From: Candidatus Hebobacterum abditum
Lineage (GTDB): Bacteria > Armatimonadota > Hebobacteria > Hebobacterales > Hebobacteraceae
Reading direction: 5' to 3'
Assembly: GCA_029821875.1 (NCBI GenBank)
Contig: JALGXW010000008.1
Coordinates: 108,713-172,712, forward strand
Length of the DNA: 64,000 bases
The position numbers and the translations under genes were made by a program. Under the pieces are notes generated by a model. The model did no database searches, was not told where the DNA came from, and was given only the letters and a program-made list of their open reading frames with translations. Positions 23,547 through 61,985 of this stretch are shown here, piece by piece; position 1 is the stretch's first letter, and every line of letters begins with the position of its first letter.

Positions 23547-24992
23547 CTACGACGCCCACGCCTTGCGCACTTCCTCCACTGACTTCTCGGGGACGCGGAC
23601 GCCGTCGTAGTCTCGCGGCGGAATGCGGTCGGGTGAGGCGAGGCGCTTCTTCGCGTCGGCGATGGTCTGCTTGTACTGCGGCAGCAGCGCCTCCTGGGCG
23701 ACGAGCATCTCGTCCACCATCTGCCAGATCTCCGGCGGATTGCAGACCGCGGCCGTGAGCGGGTCCATCATCATCGCCTGGCGCAGCAGCATGTCGTCGC
23801 CCTGCACCGCCGCCTCCACGGCCAGCCGCTGTACGGTGACGCTCGCATTGCACACGGCCGCGCAGCCCATGGGCAGGTCGCCGACCTGGGGGATGTTCAT
23901 CCCGTTCGCGTCCACGTATCCGGGCACCTCGACGATGCAGTCGGCCGGGAGATTCGTGATGCAGTTGTTGTTCACCACATTGAAGTGACCCCGGTAGACG
24001 CGGCCGGTCTCCAGCCCCTCCATGATGTACGAGCCGTGCTCGCCGCCGCGGTCCTCCGGGGTGAAGGTCCAGGGATCGGCCTCCATCCACTTCGGGAAGT
24101 CGGTCTCGAACCAGTTGCGGCCCTCCCGGCACGCCCGTAGGTAGCCGCCCGTCTCGCCACCCATCCAGTAGCTCAGGTCGATCCAGTTCTTCAGGTCATC
24201 CAGGCGCTTGCGGTACCAGGGCAGGTATTCGCTGAGGTGGCCGTTGGACTCGGTGCTGTAGTAGCCGAAGCGGCGCAGCATGTCGATGCGGACCTTCTCC
24301 GACCTGCTCAGGCCCGGGTCTTTCTCGAAGGCTTCGAGGATCTTGCCGGTGAGGTCCTCGCCCTTGTGCTTGACGCTGATGTACCAGGTCTGGTGGTTGA
24401 TGCCCGCGCAGATGATGTCCACCTCTTCCTTCGGCAGGCCGAGCGCCTTCGCGATCTGCCCGTGGCCGCCCTGCACGCCGTGGCACAACCCCACGCAGCG
24501 GACCCCGCCGTACGTGTTGGCGGCCCAGGTGTTCATGGCGTTCGGGTTCGCGTAGTTGAGGAACCAGGCGTCGGGCGCGGCCACCTCGCGGATGTCCTTG
24601 CAGAAGTCGACGATCACCGGGATATTGCGCTGCCCGTACATGATCCCGCCGGGCGCGAGGGTGTCGCCGACACATTGATCCACCCCGTACTTCAACGGGA
24701 TGTCGATGTCGGTCTGGAATCCCTCCAGACCGCCGACCCGGACCACTGAGAAGACATACTTCGCGCCCGTGAGCGCCTCCCGGCGGTCGGTCGTGGCGGT
24801 GATCTTCGCCGGCAACCCGGCCGCCTCGATGTCGCGGCTGCACAGCTTGTACACCATGTCGAGGTTGCGCTCGTTGATGTCGGTGAACGCAAACTCTGTG
24901 TCCCTCAACTCAGGCACGCAGAGGATGTCGCGCACGATCTCCCGCGTGAAGCCGATGCTTCCCGCGCCGATGAAGGCTGCCTTAAGCGCCAT
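23547..24992 (-). CDS. Glycoside hydrolase family 4 (NAD+/Mn2+-dependent alpha-glucosidase/alpha-galactosidase-like)
   Basis: MALKAAFIGAGSIGFTR... (NAD-binding GxGS), catalytic Cys region GLCHGV and 481 aa length are typical of GH4. RBS GAGGAGG. Confidence 0.8.
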   Translation of the reverse strand: MALKAAFIGAGSIGFTREIVRDILCVPELRDTEFAFTDINERNLDMVYKLCSRDIEAAGLPAKITATTDRREALTGAKYVFSVVRVGGLEGFQTDIDIPLKYGVDQCVGDTLAPGGIMYGQRNIPVIVDFCKDIREVAAPDAWFLNYANPNAMNTWAANTYGGVRCVGLCHGVQGGHGQIAKALGLPKEEVDIICAGINHQTWYISVKHKGEDLTGKILEAFEKDPGLSRSEKVRIDMLRRFGYYSTESNGHLSEYLPWYRKRLDDLKNWIDLSYWMGGETGGYLRACREGRNWFETDFPKWMEADPWTFTPEDRGGEHGSYIMEGLETGRVYRGHFNVVNNNCITNLPADCIVEVPGYVDANGMNIPQVGDLPMGCAAVCNASVTVQRLAVEAAVQGDDMLLRQAMMMDPLTAAVCNPPEIWQMVDEMLVAQEALLPQYKQTIADAKKRLASPDRIPPRDYDGVRVPEKSVEEVRKAWAS

Positions 24993-25034: not shown

Positions 25035-26468
25035 TCAATCGCCCGGCGTGGGCGGCGACGGCATTTCCACATCGAGCGACTTGCAGGCGTTCTCGAAGAT
25101 GCGGTCGAGCTCCTTCTGAGTGGCCGCGTCGATCTGATACTCGTAGCTCTCGATCGCCTCCCGGGCCTTGTCCAAGGCGAGCTGCTCGACGGTCGGCTCT
25201 CCCGCCGACCGCCACCGCCCGACATTGTCCCGGCGGAAGAGCGGCGAATCGAAGAAGTCCGGCAGCGCTTCGAGCGTAGTCGGATGGGTGAGGAAGTTCC
25301 CTTCCGGCACTCCCTCGGCCACGACCTTCGCTATCTCTTCTGCCGTGCCGCTCCACTTCATCCCATCGAGGATGTGCTGCACGTAGCGGCCGATCTCCAT
25401 GTCGATGATGAACTGCGCGGGGCTGAACACCTCGTCCATCGACAGCTGCCCGGCCCCCATGAAGAAGTGCCTGAACCCGGCCAGGCCGAGCATCAGCAGG
25501 TAGGCCGTGCGGTCGACCGCCGCCAGGGCGTCGGCGCGCTTGGCATTGGTGTCGAGGTATATCCAGTCGAGGCGGTAACCGGCGAAGTGCTCGCCGAGGT
25601 CCTGCAGGAGCTTCTGGATCATGACGTTCTCCGGCAGGCTGTAGGCCACGGTCAGGTCGCGCATGTCGCCGAAGTCCACTCGGATGGGAAGAAGCTGATC
25701 CGGGTACGTCAGCCCAAGGCGGTCGGCCACGATCCAGCCGGCCAGGCTCTCCGCGAGGCTCTGCGCCAGCAGGCCGGGCGCGGTGAGCGGCGCCGTCATC
25801 CCGCCCGTCGGAATGGGGCAGATGCTCGCACCAATGTCCAGCAGCGGATCGTCCTTGAACTTCCAGAACAGGTCGAGGGCAACGTAGTCGAGCGTCAGCG
25901 GGCTGATGACGAACTGAAATCCTACCTCGTAGCGCCTCCCGGCGGCCGCGTGGAGCTCGCCAATCCATCGTATCACGTCTGGCTCGTGGGTCACCATGGC
26001 CCCGCCGAGCCCGGCCGTCGTCTCCAGGCAGGCCTTCTCGAGCCACAGCACCTGGACGCGGTCGTCCACATCGTTGGGGTAGACTGGGGGCGGCCCCTCG
26101 TCGTCGAAACTGGCGACCAGCTTCAACATCTCGATCGCATCGGCCGCGGTAGAGGCGCGCACCTCATTCGTCTGCATGTCGATGATGTTGAAACAGGTCC
26201 AGGGCCCCGTGACCCTGATCCTCTCCTCCGGCTTCCGCTTGCGGCCGGCCGCCCGCAGCTTCTCGATCTCCGCCTCGACCACCTCCGGCGCGAACTTGAG
26301 CCGGCCGTCCGAGTAGCTGACGCCCTCCTCCGCGCTCACCGCGTCCGCGGTCGGCTCGTGCTTGCAGGCGATGCCGACATCGGCCAGGATCCGCAACACC
26401 GCGCCGTGGACCGTCTGGGTGTGATCGGCGCCGAGACCGCCGGACAACGAGAACTGTAGTCGCTCCAT
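25035..26468 (-). CDS. MttB-superfamily (trimethylamine/quaternary-amine methyltransferase-like) protein, non-pyrrolysine type
   Basis: About 478 aa TIM-barrel protein with the MttB-like architecture. There is no in-frame amber codon. No corrinoid-protein partner is present in the window. Start taken as ATG 26468 (GGAGG 6 nt upstream); a GTG at 26474 is also possible. Confidence 0.45.
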   Translation of the reverse strand: MERLQFSLSGGLGADHTQTVHGAVLRILADVGIACKHEPTADAVSAEEGVSYSDGRLKFAPEVVEAEIEKLRAAGRKRKPEERIRVTGPWTCFNIIDMQTNEVRASTAADAIEMLKLVASFDDEGPPPVYPNDVDDRVQVLWLEKACLETTAGLGGAMVTHEPDVIRWIGELHAAAGRRYEVGFQFVISPLTLDYVALDLFWKFKDDPLLDIGASICPIPTGGMTAPLTAPGLLAQSLAESLAGWIVADRLGLTYPDQLLPIRVDFGDMRDLTVAYSLPENVMIQKLLQDLGEHFAGYRLDWIYLDTNAKRADALAAVDRTAYLLMLGLAGFRHFFMGAGQLSMDEVFSPAQFIIDMEIGRYVQHILDGMKWSGTAEEIAKVVAEGVPEGNFLTHPTTLEALPDFFDSPLFRRDNVGRWRSAGEPTVEQLALDKAREAIESYEYQIDAATQKELDRIFENACKSLDVEMPSPPTPGD

Positions 26469-26684
26469 TAGCACCTCCGCCGACGCCCCTGTCGCCGTTC
26501 TCTCTACACTTGTGTTCTATTTGCGCAGCCAGCCAGTGTCACCTCTCCGGGGCTCGTCCGGCGCCGTCGGGGAGGACCCGTCGTCGCGTGAGGCTGTGGC
26601 AGACAGGAGGTGACAGCCTTCGCTTCCGGCCTGGCCGCCGCTTCGGCAGTGCAACTACTGAGGCAACGGGGCCGCGGGTCGCTC

Positions 26685-27347: not shown

Positions 27348-27371
27348 GGGCAGGAGGCAAGTGCCTGCCCC
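27348..27371. repeat. Family A hairpin variant GGGCAGGAGGCAAGTGCCTGCCCC
   Basis: Shares the GGGCAGG / CCTGCCC arms with the copies at 38147, 45153, 46247, 58436 and 61958. Confidence 0.4.
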
Positions 27372-38146: not shown

Positions 38147-38203
38147 GCGGGGCAGGAGCTTTGGCTCCTGCCCCGCGAGCGCGAGCACACGTATGTGCTC
38201 GGT
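38147..38203. terminator. Family A hairpin GCGGGGCAGGAGC-TTTG-GCTCCTGCCCCGC followed by a second palindrome GAGCACA-CGTA-TGTGCTC
   Basis: A 13-bp perfect stem, seen directly. It lies about 200 nt downstream of the anti-sigma stop and upstream of the AKR gene. Confidence 0.45.
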
Positions 38204-41139: not shown

Positions 41140-41317
41140 CGCTGCTGCTCCCGATGTCCTCCGAACTCAGTAAGTCTATACCACACCTGGGGGAGTTTCC
41201 GGGCATTTGAGCACGTCAGCAGCCCTCACCCGCTCCTGCTGCCGAGGCCCATTACACGCCCCGCTGCGCAGACGCTCCCTCGCAGGCGCTCAAATGCTCC
41301 GCGCCGAAGAGGGCCGC

Positions 41318-42442
41318 ATGGCCAAAGGACACGTCTACCCAAGCGAAAAGCGCGAGTTCGAGGACGCCGAGACGGGCGCGCAAGTGGTGCAGCTCACCCA
41401 CTGGCGGGGGCACTCCAACCACCTCTACTTCACCACCACCTCCTTCCTGCCGGGCGGCCGGCGGCTCGTCTTCGACGGCGACCGCGACAACCGAGAGAAT
41501 CTGTTCGCGGTGGACCTCGACACCGGCGAGATCGTGCAGCTGACCGATGTCTCCCGGCCCCTCGGCGGGCTGCGCGCCTGCACGAGTCCGGTTCGCCAGG
41601 AGATCTACTTCTTCGAGGGCCGCGACCTGAAGGTCGTTGATGCCGACTCCCTGGAGGAACGGACCATCTACCGCGTCCCCGATGATCGCGTGCCCTCCAT
41701 CCTCACTCCTTCATGTGATGGCCGACTGCTGGCCTTCGCGGAGCGAACCGACTTGGGCTGGGAGATCGGCCCCCAGTACCAGGGCTTCGAGAAGATGCTG
41801 GCCGAGTCGCCGCCGACCACCATTCGCGTAGTGGAGATCGCCACCGGCGAGAACTGGCCCGCGATCGAAGACCCCGCCTGGTGCAGCCACGTCAACTTCT
41901 CGCCAGGCCGGCCGGAGTGGATCTGCTACTGTCACGAGGGGCCGTGGCAGCTGGTGAAGCAGCGCATGTGGATGGTGACCGAGAGCGGCGGCGAGCACTA
42001 CCCGCTCCGCCCCCAGGACGAGAACGACTCGGTCGGCCACGAGTACTGGCTGCGCGATGGCGACCACGTCGCCTTCCACAACTGGCACGAGAAGAAGGGC
42101 CACCTGATGGGGTGGATCAAGTACGACAACACGGGGCTGGTCGAGCTGCCCTTCGCCGCGGGGTCGGGCCACTTCCAGTCGAACTCGGACAACTCCCTCC
42201 AGGTCGGCGACGGCAGCCGGGATGAGCCCTACATCTTGCTGTGGCGGATCGCGGGAGAGGTGGGCGAGGCGCGGAAGCTGGTGCGGCACCAGTCGAGCTT
42301 CCACATCCAGCGCGCCCACCCCCACCCCATCTTCAGCCCGGACGACGACTGGGTCGCCTACACCTCCGACGCCACCGGCTACTGCAATGTCTACCTGGCG
42401 CGGGTGGGAATATGTCGGACAAATCCTACTACGTCTACATAA
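41318..42442 (+). CDS. Oligogalacturonate lyase (Ogl, PL22) family protein
   Basis: MAKGHVYPSEKREFEDAETGAQVVQLTH... matches the Ogl N-terminus; about 375 aa beta-propeller-like. The last ~10 codons overlap the GIY-YIG ORF. Confidence 0.7.
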   Translation: MAKGHVYPSEKREFEDAETGAQVVQLTHWRGHSNHLYFTTTSFLPGGRRLVFDGDRDNRENLFAVDLDTGEIVQLTDVSRPLGGLRACTSPVRQEIYFFEGRDLKVVDADSLEERTIYRVPDDRVPSILTPSCDGRLLAFAERTDLGWEIGPQYQGFEKMLAESPPTTIRVVEIATGENWPAIEDPAWCSHVNFSPGRPEWICYCHEGPWQLVKQRMWMVTESGGEHYPLRPQDENDSVGHEYWLRDGDHVAFHNWHEKKGHLMGWIKYDNTGLVELPFAAGSGHFQSNSDNSLQVGDGSRDEPYILLWRIAGEVGEARKLVRHQSSFHIQRAHPHPIFSPDDDWVAYTSDATGYCNVYLARVGICRTNPTTST

Positions 42443-42702
42443 TGACGAACAACTACGGAACGCTGTACACCGGCGTCACCAGCGACCTGCCGCGTCGTGT
42501 CTGGCAGCACAAGCAAAAGCTCTTGCCTGGGTTCACCAAACGCTACAACCTAACGCGGCTGGTGCACTATGAGGAGACTAACGATGTTACGGGTGCCATT
42601 GCCCGAGAGAAGCAGATCAAGGGATGGGTCCGCGGGAAGAAGGTGGCCCTGATCGAGTCCAGCAATCCGAACTGGACTGACCTGGCGGAGGACTGGTTCT
42701 GA
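42412..42702 (+). CDS. Small GIY-YIG nuclease family protein (COG2827/UPF0213-like)
   Basis: MSDKSYYVYIMTNNYGTLYTGVTSDLPRRVWQHKQ... is the classic GIY-YIG motif. 96 aa. It overlaps the 3' end of the Ogl gene by 31 nt. Confidence 0.75.
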   Translation: MSDKSYYVYIMTNNYGTLYTGVTSDLPRRVWQHKQKLLPGFTKRYNLTRLVHYEETNDVTGAIAREKQIKGWVRGKKVALIESSNPNWTDLAEDWF

Positions 42703-42704
42703 AC

Positions 42705-42905
42705 AGCGGGATTCTTCGCTTCGCTCAGAATGACAGAGTCGCTAGGCCTACAGGTGCGGCACCCTACGTGGAGAGTCCCGCGAATATGGGACAGGCCGCT
42801 GCTCCGCAGCAGTTGCGGTGAGATGCAAAGGTTTGTCTGTTTGGGAGTCGAACCACGCAGTCCCACAAGGAGCTGTCACTCTGAGCGAAGCGAAGAGTCC
42901 CGCCG
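42705..42905. repeat. Family B inverted-repeat element (arms GGGATTCTTCGCTTCGCTCAGAATGACAGAG and CTGTCACTCTGAGCGAAGCGAAGAGTCCCGCC, ~130-bp spacer)
   Basis: Seen directly. The arms are reverse complements of each other. It sits right after the GIY-YIG gene. Confidence 0.6.
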
Positions 42906-43000
42906 TTTGTTCTTGGGCAGGACCCGGGGCCGCATCCGGCAGCGCGTCTCCTGCCCGTCCTACTCGAAACACCGCCAGCCCATCGAAACGCGGACATCAC

Positions 43001-43275
43001 CTACTGCTGGCCAGGTACCACCGTATCGAGATGTACGGCATCAGGAAGAGCAGGAACACGGCCAGCTTGAGCACCGTCATGCCCGCGTAGTTTACACGCA
43101 CGAAGTCGACCTCGTCGATGCCGAAGATTCCTCCATGGACTGCGTACATGCATCCCCGCGCCAACACGTAGATCAACAGCCACAGAATGAGGACGGCATA
43201 GCCGACGACTGCGCTGCGCCAGAGCACTCCTGAGACCGCGTCAAGTGTGACGCGCACACCTTCTGCCCGCTCCAT
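43001..43275 (-). CDS. Small two-TM membrane protein (91 aa), hypothetical
   Basis: MERAEGVRVTLDAVSGVLWRSAVVGYAVLILWLLIYVLARG... Strong RBS GAAGGGGGAG. The longer upstream ORF extension was rejected. Confidence 0.5.
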
Positions 43276-43479
43276 TTCGCTCCCCCTTCCGTTGCGCCGG
43301 GATTCCCCATACCAAGCAGCTTTCGCAGTGCTTCGGTAAGCCTGCGGTTGAAGCCGCGCGCAGTATACACCGCCCCCTGCCTGCCCACAAGGGCATGTAT
43401 ACTTGCTTAGCGATCCGTCTCGCTTAACGCCCGGGCGGGAGGGAGTCTCCTGCCGGTCTCCTCTCACATAGCCGTAGCA

Positions 43480-43507
43480 CTTGACGGACGGTCGCTTGGC
43501 GTGGGAG
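43480..43507 (+). promoter_or_regulatory. Family C 28-bp conserved motif CTTGACGGACGGTCGCTTGGCGTGGGAG (contains a TTGACG -35-like hexamer)
   Basis: Present in three copies (here, 59664-59692 and 60326-60353 on the opposite strand). Each copy is followed within 25-30 nt by a G-rich Shine-Dalgarno and a start codon, or by a hairpin and a membrane-protein gene. Here a 43-codon GTG ORF (43532-43663, single TM) follows. Confidence 0.45.
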
Positions 43508-43722
43508 AGTGGGGGAGGGGAGGTGCGCCCTGTGAACGAGAGCACGCTGAGGGAGATCGGCCGCTACCTCGTCGACCACTGGTACCTTATGCCGCTTGCC
43601 GTGGTTCTCGTCGTGGCGATCGCCGTCGCCTACCACAGGATCACGGAGAAGCTGGGCGCTTAGTCCGCAGGGGGGTCTCATTGTGCGGCCTCCCGCGGTG
43701 GCGTCGACGAAGGAGGCGGCGT

Positions 43723-44337
43723 ATGAGTGACGACAGAGAGAGGCGGAGGGCGGTCTGGCGGAGAGGCACTGAGCTGGGGGCGAGGGTGACAACAGCATTC
43801 CAGGAGGGTGTGATGAGACGCGGGGTGGCGTTGTCGAAGTGGCTGCCGGTCATCATCTGTGTCGCCGGGGCTGCGGCCGCGTTCGGCTATGTGCCGGAGC
43901 GGCAGATCCCGGTGAAGCTCACAGCGACCCCCAAGTCCGACGTGTATGCGGTGGGGGAGAGCATCCTCGTCACGCTGGCCATCGAGAACGGGCTCCGCGA
44001 CGAGATCGGGTTGACGACCTTCTCGCTGGTGCCCAACGACTGGAACGGGGAGACGTATCACTGCAGCGCGGCGGAGATTCATCGCGAAGGCAAACAGGGG
44101 AACCTCTACCTCGCGCGGCCGGAGCTCAAGGTGCCGCGCACCATCTCGGGCCCAAGCGCCCACTACATCAAACCGGGGGAATCGCTGACCATCGAGCTGG
44201 ATCTCAGCAAGTGGCAGCTTCGCGACGGCTGGCTGGCTGGCCGCTACGACGCGAGGTTCAGGGTGGACGAGATCCGCGCGGATAAGTATGTGGTGCTGGC
44301 GGTGAGCTCGGATCCGATCACCTTCGAACTGCGGTGA
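43723..44337 (+). CDS. Hypothetical secreted protein
   Basis: Two candidate starts: ATG 43723 (RBS GAAGGAGG) or ATG 43813 (RBS CAGGAGGG). The latter gives a signal-peptide-like MRRGVALSKWLPVIICVAGAAAAFG. No family recognised. Confidence 0.5.
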   Translation: MSDDRERRRAVWRRGTELGARVTTAFQEGVMRRGVALSKWLPVIICVAGAAAAFGYVPERQIPVKLTATPKSDVYAVGESILVTLAIENGLRDEIGLTTFSLVPNDWNGETYHCSAAEIHREGKQGNLYLARPELKVPRTISGPSAHYIKPGESLTIELDLSKWQLRDGWLAGRYDARFRVDEIRADKYVVLAVSSDPITFELR

Positions 44338-44360
44338 GGCTGGGTCAAGGAGGGGGGAGC

Positions 44361-45137
44361 ATGAGTGAAGGCAGGCGAAGCGCCGGGCCCGTCTGGGTGC
44401 TGTCGATGGCGCGGGGGCTGGGAGTTGGGGCGCTCGGGTTAGTCTTCCTTGGCCTCATAGTCCTCCACGAGGGTCCCGGCTTCTTCTTGGTCGGGGCCGT
44501 TCTGGGGCTGGTCGCGCTAGTCGTCGGGGGGTTGACCGGCCGGCGCCTGAAGAAGCTCCGGGAACAGGAGGAGGAGAGCGCGGGCGATATCGGGCGAACC
44601 GCGGGCGGATTCACCTTGGGCTGTGGCCTGCTGGTGGGGACGCTGCTGCTGCTGGGGTGGCTGCTCCCCTCCCACATCTGGCCCTTTGCCCATCAAGGAC
44701 AGGGGGGCCGCAAGGCGGCCTGCCTGTCGAACGTGAAGAACCTCGCGCTCGCCCTGCAGATGTACCTGGCCGACAACGGCGATGTCTTCCCCGCCGCGGA
44801 CGCGTGGTGCGAGTCGCTGGAGGACTACGTGAAGAACTGGGACGTGTTCCGGTGCCCCTCGGTCCGCGACCGGGACCGCGAGTGTGACTTCGCTTTCAAC
44901 GACGCGCTCGACGGCGCGAGCATGAGCGACCTCGCCGACCCGGCGAGCACGGTGGCGATCTTCGAGAGCGATGTCGGGTGGAACGCGGCGGGCGATGCGA
45001 GCATCCTGCCCGCCGCGCCGAGGCACCTAGAGGGTGACATCTACGGCCGCGCGGACGGCCATGCCCTGTCGGTGAAGCGTGAAGAGCTGTCCCTCGGCCA
45101 GGCCGAGATCGGGTGGTCGTTGAAGGGCGCGGAGTGA
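44361..45137 (+). CDS. DUF1559 (H-X9-DG) domain membrane protein lacking the prepilin N-terminal motif
   Basis: Two N-terminal TM helices, then CLSNVKNLALALQMYLADNGDVFP and C-terminal GRADGHALSV. RBS AAGGAGGGGGGAG. Confidence 0.65.
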   Translation: MSEGRRSAGPVWVLSMARGLGVGALGLVFLGLIVLHEGPGFFLVGAVLGLVALVVGGLTGRRLKKLREQEEESAGDIGRTAGGFTLGCGLLVGTLLLLGWLLPSHIWPFAHQGQGGRKAACLSNVKNLALALQMYLADNGDVFPAADAWCESLEDYVKNWDVFRCPSVRDRDRECDFAFNDALDGASMSDLADPASTVAIFESDVGWNAAGDASILPAAPRHLEGDIYGRADGHALSVKREELSLGQAEIGWSLKGAE

Positions 45138-45152
45138 GAGGCATAGCGCGCA

Positions 45153-45180
45153 GGGGCAGGAGGCACGCTCCTGCCCTACG
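45153..45180. repeat. Family A hairpin GGGGCAGGAGGCACGCTCCTGCCCTACG directly after a stop codon
   Basis: Identical to the copy at 61958-61985 and near-identical to 46247-46273. Confidence 0.6.
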
Positions 45181-45236
45181 AACTGAAGCACCGCCGCGGC
45201 GCGGCCCATCATGTAGAGGATTGGCGCAGGGAGAGA

Positions 45237-46241
45237 GTGCAAATGGCAGAGCAGGAGATCAGGGTTGGCTTCATTGGATCGGGATACATTGCCGGGCAGC
45301 ATGCGGAGGCGCTGCGCGATGTCGAGGGCGTGCAGTTCTCGGCCTGCATGGACATAAAGGATGAGCAGGCGCAGCAGCTCGCCGCGCTCACAGGCGGTCG
45401 TCCTACAGCCAGCCTAGACGAGGCCGTCGAGGAATCCGATGTGCTGTGGGTGTGCACCCCGCCCAAGCACCACCGGCAGCAGGTCCTCGCCTGCCTCGAA
45501 GCGGGCCGGCATGTCTACTGTGAGAAGCCGCTGGCCACCACTCTCGACGACGGCCGCGCCATCGCGGCGGCGGCCGAGGGCACCGACGCGCTGGCCGCCA
45601 TCGGGTTCAACTTCCGCTTCCACGAGCCGTGGCGCAAGTGCAAGGAGCTGCTCGACGCGGGCGACCTCGGCAAGCCGATGATGTTCCTCTGTCAGCGCGC
45701 CGGCCTGGGAGCCACGAGCGGCTGGCGCCGCGACCCGGACGAGCTGTGCGGCATGACCATCGAGTCCCTGTCCCACAACATCGATCTGCTGCGCTTCCTG
45801 CTCGGAGATGTCGCCAGCACCTCGGCACATGTGATGGTGGACCCCGACCAGCCCGAGTTCGACATCTGCCTGGCCGCCACGTTGAAGCTGCGCTCGGGAG
45901 TCGCTGCCGGCATGCAGGCGACATGGGCGTCGGCGGTGCCGGCCACTCGCCACGGCGTCGTGGGCACCGCGGCGACGGCGCTCATCGAGGGCCCGGACCA
46001 GTTCGAGTTCGACTGCCTGCGTGTGTCGCAGAGAGACGATGAGGCCGAGCGCGTCTACCGCTTCGCCCTGCCGTCGAATCCACTCCGGGCCGCCTGCGAG
46101 CACTTCATCGCAGCGGCACGCGGGGAGACTGCACTCGAGATTCCCATCGCCGATGGGCTGCGCGCCCTGGAGGTGTCGGCCGCCATGCTGGCCTCCGCTC
46201 AGCAGGGCGGGGCCGCGGTGGCGGTTGATACGCCGGGCTGA
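45237..46241 (+). CDS. Gfo/Idh/MocA family oxidoreductase
   Basis: IRVGFIGSGYIAGQHAEAL... Rossmann fold; 334 aa. Confidence 0.7.
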   Translation: MQMAEQEIRVGFIGSGYIAGQHAEALRDVEGVQFSACMDIKDEQAQQLAALTGGRPTASLDEAVEESDVLWVCTPPKHHRQQVLACLEAGRHVYCEKPLATTLDDGRAIAAAAEGTDALAAIGFNFRFHEPWRKCKELLDAGDLGKPMMFLCQRAGLGATSGWRRDPDELCGMTIESLSHNIDLLRFLLGDVASTSAHVMVDPDQPEFDICLAATLKLRSGVAAGMQATWASAVPATRHGVVGTAATALIEGPDQFEFDCLRVSQRDDEAERVYRFALPSNPLRAACEHFIAAARGETALEIPIADGLRALEVSAAMLASAQQGGAAVAVDTPG

Positions 46242-46246
46242 GCGAT

Positions 46247-46273
46247 GGGGCAGGGGCACGCTCCTGCCCTACG
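46247..46273. repeat. Family A hairpin GGGGCAGGGGCACGCTCCTGCCCTACG
   Basis: Six nt after the stop of the oxidoreductase gene. Confidence 0.6.
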
Positions 46274-46390
46274 GAGCTCAACGGTCGGGATCGGAGTGCC
46301 CGCCCTACAAGCGGCCCCTGCATAGGAACGGCGGGCCGGCTTGAGGAAAGTGGACTCTGGCAGACTGCCGCAATTCCGGGAGGTCCGATC

Positions 46391-46663
46391 GTGGGCAAAG
46401 CTGGGTTCTGGCTGTCGCTGGCTCCCTGGGCGATGCTGCTCATCGCCTTCACGAGCAACTTCGGCTGAGGGGATCCCTGTGGAGACCTGGTAGGTCTCCT
46501 CCTCGCCGCATCCGCACTGTCCACACCCCTGGCCTTCGGACTGAGCCTCGCCGGATGGCTCAGGCGGGTCCACACGGGCCATGCCATCGCCGGCACGTTC
46601 ATCAGCGGCCTCGCCCTGCTGCTGTCCCTCTTCTGGCTGACGCTGGTACTCATGATCAGCTAG
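46391..46663 (+). other. Small membrane-protein ORF interrupted by an in-frame TGA (46466-46468) with a hairpin 12 nt downstream: possible recoding (Sec) site, pseudogene, or two tiny ORFs
   Basis: GTG 46391 with GGGAGG 7 nt upstream. 25 codons (VGKAGFWLSLAPWAMLLIAFTSNFG), then TGA, then 62 more in-frame codons (GDPCGDLVGLLLAASALSTP...LMIS) ending at TAG 46661-46663. Hairpin GGAGACCT-GGT-AGGTCTCC at 46481-46499. Confidence 0.3.
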
Positions 46664-46782
46664 CGCGCAGGTCCTGCGCCATTCCTGCCGACTCCTGCTG
46701 CTCGCCGCGCCCTGCAGGACGGTAAGGGAGCGGCCCCGAAGCATGGGCCGACGACCAGTTTCCCCAGACAGGAGGAGTGCCG

Positions 46783-48894
46783 GTGAAGCGATGCCTGCTC
46801 GCGCTGGTGGTAGTGGCCGCTCTGGCGTCGGTCTGCCAGGCCGACAAGATGCTCTTCGATTTCGAGGATCCCGCCGGGCCGCCGGCCCTGGAGACCAACG
46901 CCGCGGAGGCGACGCTCGCTCCGGCGCCGTCGGGAGAGGGCCAGGCACTCCGGCTCATCGCCTCGGAGGGAAGATGGCAGTCCGTCAGCTTCCCGGCGGA
47001 GGAGCCCTGGGACTGGAGCGGCTACACCGGCCTGGCGGCGGAGGTCACCAATCCGGGCGTCAAATCGGTGGAGGTGTTCATCAGCGTGGGGAATCCGCCG
47101 GAGGAGGGGAAACAGCGCGGCCCCATGAATGCGGCGTGGCAGTCGGTGGGCGCAGGTGAGACGATCATGCTCGCGCTGCGCTTCAACACCGGCGACGAGG
47201 GCGCGCTGTGGGGGATGCGCGGCTACCCGATCATCGACGGGTACCCGACCGGGCCGGCCTGGGGCGGGGTGATCGATCTGTCCAAGATCGCCTCCCTCGG
47301 CGTTGGGCTCGGGCGGGGCGGAGCCGGAGATGAGGTACTCGTCGACAACATCCGCCTCTGGGGCGGGCCCGACTCGCCGGTCGAGGAGATCCCGCCCTTC
47401 GCCGATCGCTACGGGCAGTACGCCCTGCAGGACTGGCCGGGCAAGGTCGAGAGCGATGAGGACCTGGCGGCACAGCGAGAGGCCGAGCGCGAGGAGCTGG
47501 ACCGGGCGGTTCCGCTGGCGGACCGCGACGAGTACGGCGGGTGGACGGCCGGCCCGCAGTTGGCGGCCACCGGCTGGTTCCGCACGGAGAAAGTAGATGG
47601 GAAGTGGTGGCTCGTCACACCGACGGGACACCTCTTCTTCTCCAGCGGCATCGACGTCGTGCTGCCGGGCCAGCAGACCTTCATCACCGAGCGTGACCGA
47701 TACTTCGAGTGGCTGCCCGAGCGCGACGGCATCTTCGCCGAGTGCTTCGGCTTCGACCCCAATCCCCTCAACCACGCCGGGCCGCTGGAGGACACCGGCG
47801 GCGACACCTTCAACTTCTACCGCGCCAATCTGATCCGCAAGTACGGAGAGGCCTGGGCCGAGCCGTGGAGGCAGGTGACCTACGACCGGATGAGCGCCTG
47901 GGGCTTCAACACCATCGCCGGCTGGTCCGAGGAGGCGGTGTACCACAACTCGCCCCATCCCTTCGCGGTGTGCGTCTGGATGTCGGGTGAGGAGCGGCCA
48001 ATCGAGGGGGCCTATGGCTACTGGCAGCAGATGCCCGATGTCTACGACCCCTCCTTCGATGAGGAAGTGGACCGCGTGATGCGCGAGGCCGGCGCGAAGT
48101 TCGCCGACAATCCCCGCTGCATCGGCTACTTCTTCGAGAACGAGATGTCGTGGGGAGGGGACGGCAGCTTCAACATCGCCGCCGGCACGCTGCGCTCTCC
48201 GGCCGACCAGCCGTGCCGCCGGGAGTTCGTGCGCGCCCTCGAAGAGAAGCACGGCTCCCTCGACGCCGTCAACGCCGCCTGGGAAACCGAGGCGGAGAGC
48301 TGGGACGATCTGCGCGCACCCGACGAGCCCAACGAGGCCTGCGCGGAGGACCTCCGCGCCTTCACCTACGAGTATTCGCTGGAGTACTTCCGCAAGGTGC
48401 ACGCTGGTATGGAGCGGCACGCGCCACACCAGCTCGACCTGGGCTGCCGCTTCGCCTGGGCCAACCGGGAGAGTATACGCGCCTGCGCGGAGGTGGCGGA
48501 CGTGGTCAGCTTCAACATCTACCGGCCCCGCGTCGACGCCGAGCGCTGGGCCCATACCGCCGAGCTCGGCAAGCCCTGCATCATCGGGGAGTTCCACTTC
48601 GGCGCCCTCGACCGCGGCTCACTGCACCCCGGGCTGGTGGAAGTCAGCGACCAGGACGAGCGGGCGGAGATGTTCATCGACTACGTCCACAGCGTGCTCG
48701 ACGTGCCCGCCTTCGTGGGCTGCCACTGGTTCCAGTACGTGGACGAGCCGCTCACCGGCCGCACGCTCGACGGCGAGAACTACAACATCGGCCTGGTGAC
48801 GGTCACCGATACGGTGTTCCCCGAGCTGATCGCGGCCGCCCGGAAGGTGCACGAGGACATCTATCCTCGCCGCTACCACGGCGCCGCCGACTAG
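46783..48894 (+). CDS. Secreted TIM-barrel glycoside hydrolase, GH50 (agarase)-like / clan GH-A, with an N-terminal beta-sandwich domain
   Basis: Signal peptide MKRCLLALVVVAALASVCQA (GTG 46783, 7 nt from AGGAGG). Motifs GFNTIAGWSEE, FFENEMSWGG, IIGEFHFGA and CHWFQYVDEPLTGRTLDGENYNIGLV resemble GH50/GH42-type barrels. Confidence 0.45.
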   Translation: MKRCLLALVVVAALASVCQADKMLFDFEDPAGPPALETNAAEATLAPAPSGEGQALRLIASEGRWQSVSFPAEEPWDWSGYTGLAAEVTNPGVKSVEVFISVGNPPEEGKQRGPMNAAWQSVGAGETIMLALRFNTGDEGALWGMRGYPIIDGYPTGPAWGGVIDLSKIASLGVGLGRGGAGDEVLVDNIRLWGGPDSPVEEIPPFADRYGQYALQDWPGKVESDEDLAAQREAEREELDRAVPLADRDEYGGWTAGPQLAATGWFRTEKVDGKWWLVTPTGHLFFSSGIDVVLPGQQTFITERDRYFEWLPERDGIFAECFGFDPNPLNHAGPLEDTGGDTFNFYRANLIRKYGEAWAEPWRQVTYDRMSAWGFNTIAGWSEEAVYHNSPHPFAVCVWMSGEERPIEGAYGYWQQMPDVYDPSFDEEVDRVMREAGAKFADNPRCIGYFFENEMSWGGDGSFNIAAGTLRSPADQPCRREFVRALEEKHGSLDAVNAAWETEAESWDDLRAPDEPNEACAEDLRAFTYEYSLEYFRKVHAGMERHAPHQLDLGCRFAWANRESIRACAEVADVVSFNIYRPRVDAERWAHTAELGKPCIIGEFHFGALDRGSLHPGLVEVSDQDERAEMFIDYVHSVLDVPAFVGCHWFQYVDEPLTGRTLDGENYNIGLVTVTDTVFPELIAAARKVHEDIYPRRYHGAAD

Positions 48895-58435: not shown

Positions 58436-58484
58436 CCCGTAGGGCAGGAGCTTCGTCTCCTGCCCCAGTCGTTTGCCCTACGGG
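58436..58484. repeat. Family A compound hairpin CCCGTAGGGCAGGAG-CTTCGT-CTCCTGCCCC...GCCCTACGGG
   Basis: Between two minus-strand genes, downstream of the stop at 58478. Confidence 0.5.
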
Positions 58485-61957: not shown

Positions 61958-61985
61958 GGGGCAGGAGGCACGCTCCTGCCCTACG
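61958..61985. repeat. Family A hairpin GGGGCAGGAGGCACGCTCCTGCCCTACG after the amidohydrolase stop
   Basis: Identical to 45153-45180. Confidence 0.6.

Follow-up and report, generated by a model that had tools for sequence, protein, structure and literature searches.

The genes of bacterial selenoproteins, of which fdhF of Escherichia coli is the prototype, carry an in-frame UGA codon followed by an intragenic stem–loop, the bacterial selenocysteine insertion sequence (bSECIS), and the two features are conserved jointly in orthologues. As modelled, the bSECIS has an apical loop of 3–9 nucleotides (nt) and an upper stem of 4–16 base pairs (bp), with a G within the first two loop positions that is followed by G or U, a UGA-to-loop distance of 16–37 nt and a folding energy of −7.5 kcal/mol or below (PMC13188914). 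Here we describe a small membrane-protein gene with the same arrangement, located in a 64,000-nt stretch of DNA from Candidatus Hebobacterum abditum (contig JALGXW010000008.1, positions 108,713 to 172,712 of the forward strand), the whole of which we refer to as the window. An earlier note on this DNA had read the gene as containing a recoded UGA with a SECIS-like hairpin, a reading that is now supported by conservation of the TGA and of the hairpin, by purifying selection and by linkage to the selenophosphate synthetase gene selD. Because UGA and hairpin are conserved and selD is adjacent in most relatives, the gene very probably represents an undescribed family of bacterial selenoproteins. 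We consider it likely that it is a true selenoprotein gene whose UGA is decoded by SelB with the aid of a bSECIS, and that it encodes a small membrane protein, equipped with a selenocysteine (Sec) paired with a Cys, that handles selenium or redox equivalents in connection with SelD.

Membrane proteins with a link to selenium metabolism have been described before. The YedE/YeeE proteins (PF04143) are linked to selD and have been proposed as selenium transporters, and some of them are selenoproteins (PMC5322559; PMC13188914). Like these, the protein described here is a membrane protein encoded beside selD, with a Gly-rich motif that may contain Sec (GUxSG in YedE, G-U-G-[SD] here) and a suspected role in supplying selenium to SelD; unlike them it has three predicted helices in about 90 residues, compared with about ten transmembrane helices, and gives no PF04143 match. 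The mercuric transport protein MerT has three helices. Among the entries quoted here from a 2026 review, MerT-like selenoproteins appear as ‘putative mercuric transport protein’ (PF02411) with a C/SxxU motif (PMC13188914). They offer a parallel in being small inner-membrane proteins with a Sec/Cys pair that are thought to bind a soft element, from which the present family differs in lacking a PF02411 match and a C/SxxU motif, in the predicted position of its Sec in an inter-helix loop, and in having selD rather than mer genes as its partner.

The table of that review lists more than 110 selenoprotein families, and those quoted from it all carry a domain identifier (PMC13188914); the small protein differs from these listed families in having no Pfam or NCBIfam match. 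It also departs from known bacterial selenoproteins in that Gly, not Cys, replaces Sec in a homologue, and a very small integral membrane protein is unusual among them. In the phylum Armatimonadota, Sec-containing hydrogenases and tRNA-Sec have been reported, together with recoding by tRNA-ReC (SelC*), which likewise involves a UGA with a downstream SECIS but inserts Cys (PMC13582414). The Hebobacteria have been described as anaerobes of marine sediments (PMC10290634). With these comparisons in view it is credible that the mechanism is of the known Sec-UGA/bSECIS kind and that the protein family is new.

A small gene with a conserved in-frame TGA

The features of the gene are listed in Table 1. 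The earlier note had placed a GTG start 7 nt downstream of GGGAGG and a TGA at codon 26, both of which are found exactly where it put them; it was also right about the closing TAG, although the open frame between TGA and TAG comprises 64 sense codons and not the 62 that it had counted. Its statement that the second part lacks a start codon holds as well, the first in-frame ATG, GTG or TTG after the TGA being an ATG at 46652, three codons before the stop. In the relatives an in-frame stop just 5′ of the GTG fixes the start codon, and those linked to selD have a purine-rich GGGAGATCGGAG at the Shine–Dalgarno site. The G+C content at third codon positions in the frame of the small open reading frame (ORF) is 0.88 before the TGA and 0.81 after it, compared with 0.85–0.91 in neighbouring genes and about 0.65–0.69 in the flanking spacers (window G+C, 65.8%), so both halves look coding in one frame. 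Among ordinary stops in the window TGA is the most frequent, ending 18 of the 37 genes, and the genetic code is therefore standard; several genes on the related contigs end at TGA too, and genome-wide reassignment of UGA (code 4 or 25) was ruled out on these grounds.

A word-indexed protein search with the 90-residue product, Cys being substituted at the TGA, gave no match at E ≤ 10, and the family came to light when the 64 residues that follow the TGA were used in an exhaustive HMMER search. Among its members are P0001 (48 amino acids, 83% identical), which is encoded on a Logan contig of 950 nt (L081) that is syntenic with the window, and P0003 (97 amino acids, 48% identical), which lies on a JGI contig (L082). 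Profile searching and a single metagenome scan brought in loci L083–L093, of which L088 belongs to MAG GCA_975851895.1. P0003 has no interruption and can be aligned to the window ORF on either side of the TGA, which identifies the two halves as one protein; the alignments of all 12 related loci likewise cover the two halves.

Comparison of orthologues at the TGA codon, which the earlier note had suggested, shows that 11 of the 12 related loci have TGA in one and the same column of the alignment, L082 alone having a sense codon (GGA, Gly). The TGA-bearing loci (L081, L083, L084/85, L086/87, L088, L089, L090, L091, L092 and L093) come from independent JGI, ENA, Logan and NCBI assemblies and include nine distinct sequences at the hairpin. 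Their proteins are 44–86% identical to that of the window, and they belong to three of the four diverged lineages of the family, which are the window with L081, the selD-linked clade (L083, L084, L085, L088, L089, L090, L091, L092 and L093), L086/87, and L082. None of them has a frameshift or a second stop, and 5′ of each truncated gene call the frame reads ..GK[AT]GFW[LI]SL.P[WY].. before the TGA and G-[SDG]-.. after it.

The coding sequence downstream of the TGA is conserved. In ten pairwise comparisons within the selD-linked clade the ratio of non-synonymous to synonymous substitution rates (dN/dS) is 0.16–0.50 after the TGA, similar to the 0.10–0.77 obtained before it, and the strongest motifs of the family, P-L-A-F-G-L-S-L-A-G and I-I-S-G, fall after it. 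Between the TGA and these motifs the loci share no start codon (CTG in the window, TTG in L083 and none in L086), which counters the suggestion of two independent micro-ORFs made in the earlier note. The window and L081 differ at 22 positions in 273 nt, without indels; the 13 amino acid replacements have a mean BLOSUM62 score of +0.46, compared with −0.83 for random non-synonymous changes (P = 0.003), and none adds a charge or a stop (P = 0.04). Judged by these substitution patterns, the part after the TGA is translated and under purifying selection.

When the window is compared with L081, the small gene has a synonymous divergence of about 0.10 and the flanking genes have 0.53 and 0.37 (46086–46223 and 46783–47058), while dN is similar throughout (0.08–0.10). 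Recent recombination of the cassette or constraint at the RNA level is a possible source of the low value; the selD-linked clade is without comparable synonymous constraint on the small gene.

The SECIS-like hairpin and the link to selD

The earlier note had described a hairpin with a GGU loop 12 nt after the TGA, and this is what is found, the loop itself lying 20 nt from the UGA. Taken from the window alone the hairpin is uncommon without being decisive: a perfect 8-bp hairpin 9–15 nt past a TGA follows 7 of the 1536 TGA trinucleotides of the window (0.46%), and folding of 76 nt gives an unremarkable energy (z = −0.87). It is only when the relatives are compared that it lies far beyond chance. 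Every TGA-bearing locus has the hairpin at nt 16–34 counted from the U of the UGA, except that in L084 it stands 3 nt nearer, after a one-codon deletion. In the alignment 97.2% of cells are paired, compared with at most 64% in slid registers, and RNAalifold recovers the identical helix de novo. Double-sided changes occur in four of the eight pairs (G-C/C-G; A-U/G-C/U-A/C-G; C-G/U-A; G-C/U-A), and the covariation score of 0.608 was reached by none of 500 shuffles (0.238 in shuffles). Several of the compensatory changes alter the encoded amino acids, which implies that RNA pairing has been kept at some cost to the protein. On this comparative evidence the hairpin is a selected, conserved structure.

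The geometry claimed in the earlier note is borne out by the bSECIS constraints as well as by conserved position and compensatory change. With its GGU loop, 8-bp stem, 20-nt distance and −11.9 kcal/mol, the window hairpin falls within all four constraints, and those of the relatives have stems of 7–8 bp, loops of GGU, UGUAC or UUGGA, UGA-to-loop distances of 16–20 nt and energies of −8.7 to −11.4 kcal/mol, although L086 conforms to the rule on the loop G only with a U-A pair closing its loop to UGG. UGA and hairpin occur together in 11 of 11 loci, and the Gly homologue L082 has neither. A covariance model of the family's UGA plus hairpin (R1), a kind of scan also proposed in the earlier note, was run against the window and against loci amounting to 1.3 Mb; its sole significant match in the window is this hairpin, L082 gives no match, and the search yielded no copies beyond family members and hence no evidence of other selenoprotein genes with a SECIS of this kind. 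A 5-bp lower helix (GGGGA/UCCUC, 46469–46473 with 46500–46504), separated by a 7-nt bulge, can extend the hairpin of the window and L081 and brings the energy to −17.5 to −18.3 kcal/mol; in the other clades its conservation is not obvious.

The small gene is linked to selD in most of the family. It lies directly 5′ of selD in L082, L083, L084, L085, L088, L089, L090, L092 and L093, in the same orientation and, where the full spacer is present, at a distance of 26–76 nt (39 nt in L082). The protein downstream in L082 has 537 amino acids and is a bona fide SelD, scoring 369 bits against TIGR00476 (cut-off 125) and 328 bits against NF002098 (cut-off 299); in L084, L085, L088, L090, L092 and L093 selD was identified by tblastn. 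L086 has a selD-like gene 5.6 kb upstream on the same strand, so that two lineages, with nine loci, have selD immediately next to the small gene and a third has it less than 6 kb away. The SelD proteins concerned belong to the Cys type (..NAGCASK..) and are extended at the N-terminus by a Cys-rich segment (..HCICDPRKPCPCD..C.CAGER..). They are fusions, with a C-terminal AhpD/CMD domain, thiol-redox in kind, that contains CxxC (L082 503–2116, L084 393–2030, L089 417–1910). Upstream of the small gene a BcrAD/BadFG-type activase is encoded in L083, L088 and L090, together with an HGD-D protein in L088; the occurrence of HGD-D and BcrAD/BadFG proteins before SelD recalls the association of a double-cubane protein with SelD (bioRxiv 10.1101/2022.07.06.499078).

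Proposed decoding of the UGA and the likely role of the protein

In the mechanism that we propose, the UGA at codon 26 would be read as Sec, and the hairpin would serve as a bSECIS, by which SelB-GTP-Sec-tRNA(Sec) is brought to a ribosome that has paused at this codon. Helices 1 and 2 would then be joined by a short loop rich in Gly and Pro (..G-U-G-[D/S]-P..) that contains the Sec and lies on the non-cytoplasmic face of the membrane. The protein has Lys at its N-terminus and Arg/Lys in loop 2, and by the positive-inside rule the Sec-bearing loop 1 and the C-terminus are predicted to lie on the non-cytoplasmic side. Invariant columns are found in predicted helix 2 (P46, L47, A48, L53, G55) and helix 3 (G68, I71, S72, G73). 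An AlphaFold2 model of P0003 has helices at residues 3–26, 33–61 and 66–96. Profile scans against Pfam-A (five family sequences) and NCBIfam 20.0 (June 2026; three family sequences), in which Cys was placed at the TGA position, gave no family match at E ≤ 1 apart from SLATT_2 noise, which for the window sequence amounts to 14.7–16.6 bits, under the cut-offs of 40 and 25.

The distribution of Cys residues is consistent with a Sec/Cys pair on one face of the membrane, the sample being small. The U-x3-C motif pointed out in the earlier note is present in the window and L081, which have this loop Cys four residues past the Sec position and no C-terminal Cys; elsewhere the motif does not hold, the Cys site being occupied by Leu, Gly, Ile or Ala. 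The other Sec-bearing members have no loop Cys and instead have a penultimate one (..MCS, ..ACT, ..VCS, ..LCR). P0003, with Gly for Sec, is free of Cys and has Ser at the penultimate position. Each Sec-bearing member would thus have one Cys on the face of its Sec, either four residues past it (window clade) or at the penultimate position, and a selenenylsulfide (Se-S) pair, acting in redox chemistry or as a selenium carrier, is for this reason the most likely chemistry.

Other accounts of the UGA have to be weighed against its decoding as Sec. It could be recoded through SECIS and SelB as Cys, by tRNA-ReC/SelC*, to yield a Cys protein or a Sec/Cys mixture. Such tRNAs are described as decoding UGA as Cys with a downstream SECIS, and tRNA-ReC-like tRNAs occur beside the canonical tRNA-Sec in five of five Armatimonadota genomes that have UXXU-type hydrogenases (PMC13582414); all of the structural evidence given above fits insertion of Cys as well as it fits Sec. 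We nevertheless regard this account as improbable, given that the tight linkage to selD points to selenium itself and that a plain UGU or UGC, which would suffice for Cys, is found in none of the 12 loci; neither kind of tRNA was found in the sequences examined. A somewhat smaller chance still is assigned to the idea that the UGA is chiefly regulatory, the small ORF being a selenium-sensing leader that controls the downstream gene, mostly selD, with the peptide secondary. The 5′ leader is conserved, and the ORF ends 26–76 nt 5′ of selD in the same orientation at nine loci, as a leader might; yet conservation of the protein after the UGA, with purifying selection and invariant motifs, is unexpected for a mere leader. 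Moreover, the window and L081 keep the UGA, the hairpin and a conservative pattern of substitution though their downstream gene encodes a glycoside hydrolase, and the gene of L086/87 is not upstream of selD.

If the UGA were a true stop, the product would be a single-helix micropeptide of 25 residues, the rest would be untranslated or re-initiated, and the hairpin would have another function, for example in mRNA stability or pausing at termination. Gene callers do take the downstream part only, from ad hoc TTG, GTG or ATG starts (P0001, P0004–P0012), and L081 has an in-frame ATG 16 codons past the UGA. These restart positions differ from locus to locus, however, and are absent from the window (CTG) and L086, and the stretch that separates the UGA from any restart is itself conserved (as in G-[SD]-P-L-A-G-L-V-S-L-L). 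Since, in addition, the uninterrupted P0003 shows that both parts are one protein and the spacing and loop of the hairpin match the SECIS rules, we hold termination at the UGA to be very improbable. Least credible of all, to a degree that makes it close to negligible, is a nonsense change from GGA (Gly) to TGA in a decaying small gene, or else an assembly or sequencing error. The GGA of the sense-codon homologue is one base from TGA, and the dN/dS between the window and L081 is near 1. The same TGA is nevertheless shared by 11 loci whose samples and assemblers are independent of one another, with no frameshift or second stop, which excludes sequencing error and makes a pseudogene untenable, and which disposes of the two corresponding alternatives raised in the earlier note; the co-varying hairpin has been kept, and the downstream part is under purifying selection.

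Several observations weigh against decoding as Sec. In the window lineage (Armatimonadota, Ca. Hebobacteria-like) the small gene is not next to selD, and none of selA, selB, selD and tRNA-Sec lies within the 64-kb window. The main weakness is that homologues with Cys in place of Sec, the usual hallmark of a selenoprotein family, are missing: no Cys codon occurs at the Sec column in the 12 related loci, the sole sense-codon homologue having Gly, although this test has a sample of one sense-codon sequence (P0003) and is weak evidence. The dN/dS of 0.7–0.9 between the window and L081, obtained on 22 differences, would by that measure alone fit neutral drift, and the 51-nt stretch around the UGA that is identical in the two was dropped as evidence because the longest gap expected between 22 random differences in 273 nt is about 44 nt. 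The structure model of P0003 is of low confidence, with a predicted local distance difference test (pLDDT) score of 65 and a predicted TM-score (pTM) of 0.32. Finally, Rfam gave no match at the gathering score in the window and nothing relevant at E ≤ 10 in 46380–46580. The bacterial SECIS models in Rfam are lineage-specific, and for this reason the non-match says little.

With the UGA read as Sec, the likeliest role for the protein is to handle selenium at the membrane on behalf of SelD, by capturing, reducing or handing it over. A more specific proposal, which we put forward tentatively and think may well be wrong, is that the family is a dedicated membrane Sec/Cys acceptor or gate of selenium for SelD, with an Se-Se or Se-S adduct being formed at the membrane surface and its selenium passed to the neighbouring SelD-AhpD fusion; this would explain how SelD obtains its substrate in vivo. 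In a variant of this idea, synthesis of the small protein, being dependent on Sec, would make it a selenium-dependent switch for the expression of selD.

Sequence context and significance

Table 1. Features of the small gene and its surroundings in the window, and hairpin sequences (stem-loop-stem, as RNA) in its relatives
Feature	Coordinates	Strand	Remarks
Shine–Dalgarno-like GGGAGG	46378..46383	+	7 nt 5′ of GTG start; read directly; same in L081
5′ leader, conserved	46316..46390	+	91% identity to L081
Small membrane-protein gene (about 90 residues, three predicted helices)	46391..46663	+	GTG start, UGA codon 26, TAG stop 46661–46663; translation VGKAGFWLSLAPWAMLLIAFTSNFG*GDPCGDLVGLLLAASALSTPLAFGLSLAGWLRRVHTGHAIAGTFISGLALLLSLFWLTLVLMIS
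Predicted transmembrane helix 1, residues ~6–20, FWLSLAPWAMLLIAF	46406..46450	+	Hydrophobic; conserved G-F-W-L-S-L-x-P-W
In-frame TGA, codon 26, proposed Sec codon, loop between helices 1 and 2	46466..46468	+	Same alignment column in relatives
Cys codon TGT, U-G-D-P-C, candidate partner thiol of window clade	46478..46480	+	Window and L081 only
SECIS-like hairpin, 8-bp stem GGAGACCU/AGGUCUCC, apical loop GGU	46481..46499	+	−11.9 kcal/mol; in DNA, GGAGACCT (46481–88), GGT (46489–91), AGGTCTCC (46492–99)
Predicted transmembrane helix 2, residues ~33–56	46487..46558	+	P-L-A-F-G-L-S-L-A-G, most conserved family motif
Predicted transmembrane helix 3, residues ~65–89	46583..46657	+	Conserved G-x-x-I-S-G
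Intergenic palindrome GGGCAGGGGCACGCTCCTGCCC	46248..46270	+	Between Gfo/Idh/MocA gene and small gene; context, not recoding unit
Hairpin, window and L081			GGAGACCU-GGU-AGGUCUCC
Hairpin, L083 and L093			GCAGGCUU-GGU-AAGUCUGC
Hairpin, L088, L090 and L091			GCAGGCUU-GGU-AAGCCUGC
Hairpin, L089			GCGGGCUU-GGU-AAGCCUGC
Hairpin, L092			GGAGUCC-UGUAC-GGACUCC
Hairpin, L084/85			GGGGUCC-UGUAC-GGACUCC
Hairpin, L086/87			GGGUCCC-UUGGA-GGGAUCU

In the window lineage the small gene is located between a gene for a Gfo/Idh/MocA oxidoreductase and one for a glycoside-hydrolase-like protein of 705 amino acids. The latter is 90% and 76% identical to proteins of Ca. Hebobacteria and 72% identical to one from an Armatimonadota chromosome; 80 loci with homologues of it showed no upstream synteny and no tblastn match of the small ORF. 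A 22-kb stretch of the Armatimonadota chromosome CP070816.1 likewise contains no copy of the small gene. An exact-sequence look-up of the Gfo/Idh/MocA protein returned no record. The 3′ spacer of the small gene (46664–46776) has only about 77% identity to L081, and a consensus scan of 45100–46900 found no sigma-70-type promoter or terminator. L081 is without a 90-nt segment, 46226–46315, which contains the last Gfo/Idh/MocA codons, the TGA stop and the palindrome; its oxidoreductase gene ends at another stop, TAG.

The palindrome is a repeated intergenic element with the form GGGCAGGAG-N5-CTCCTGCCC, often followed by TACG. Besides the copy in Table 1 the window has copies at 45154–45177, 61959–61982, 38150–38173, 58442–58465 and 27348–27371, and others are found in L083 (461–481), L084 (1606 and 2040), L002 (13902 and 13971) and L009 (1007). 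They lie mostly just 3′ of gene ends, with no T-tract after them, and are confined to the window, the selD-linked contigs and Armatimonadota/Hebobacteria loci, none being present in about 77 loci from other phyla. The element looks like a lineage-specific hairpin, of the repetitive extragenic palindrome (REP) kind or a terminator.

The sole other candidate in the window for a gene split by a TGA, 25035–26474 with 23547–24992 (both on the minus strand), was rejected as two adjacent genes in frame; they encode an MTTB-family methyltransferase and a GH4 glycosidase and are a single TGA and 42 nt apart. Regions 1–20100 and 41207–48894 hold mostly genes of carbohydrate use, as in polysaccharide-degrading Armatimonadota. 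These include two GH42 beta-galactosidases, agarase-CBM/GH42-like and oligogalacturonate-lyase-like proteins, two FGGY kinases, class II aldolases, a fucose-isomerase-like protein and DUF6785/DUF6784, and the same regions also encode a DUF1559/N-methyl pilin-like protein and an SLH-domain protein.

Gene callers shorten or miss the small gene, such that the database entries are fragments of 48–61 residues and for the window copy there is no called homologue. Present annotation would in this way hide a conserved part of the selenium biology of anaerobic relatives among the Armatimonadota. The case also indicates that a lone call of a UGA plus hairpin, made from raw sequence, can be validated by comparative data alone. 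If the reading is true, a very small integral membrane protein joins a list of selenoproteins that is dominated by soluble redox enzymes. In the account of SelD drawn on here, the form of selenium that the enzyme uses in vivo and the system that delivers it are described as unresolved (PMC13188914), and the near-obligate place of the small gene before selD would make its product a concrete candidate for this unsolved step of selenium supply.

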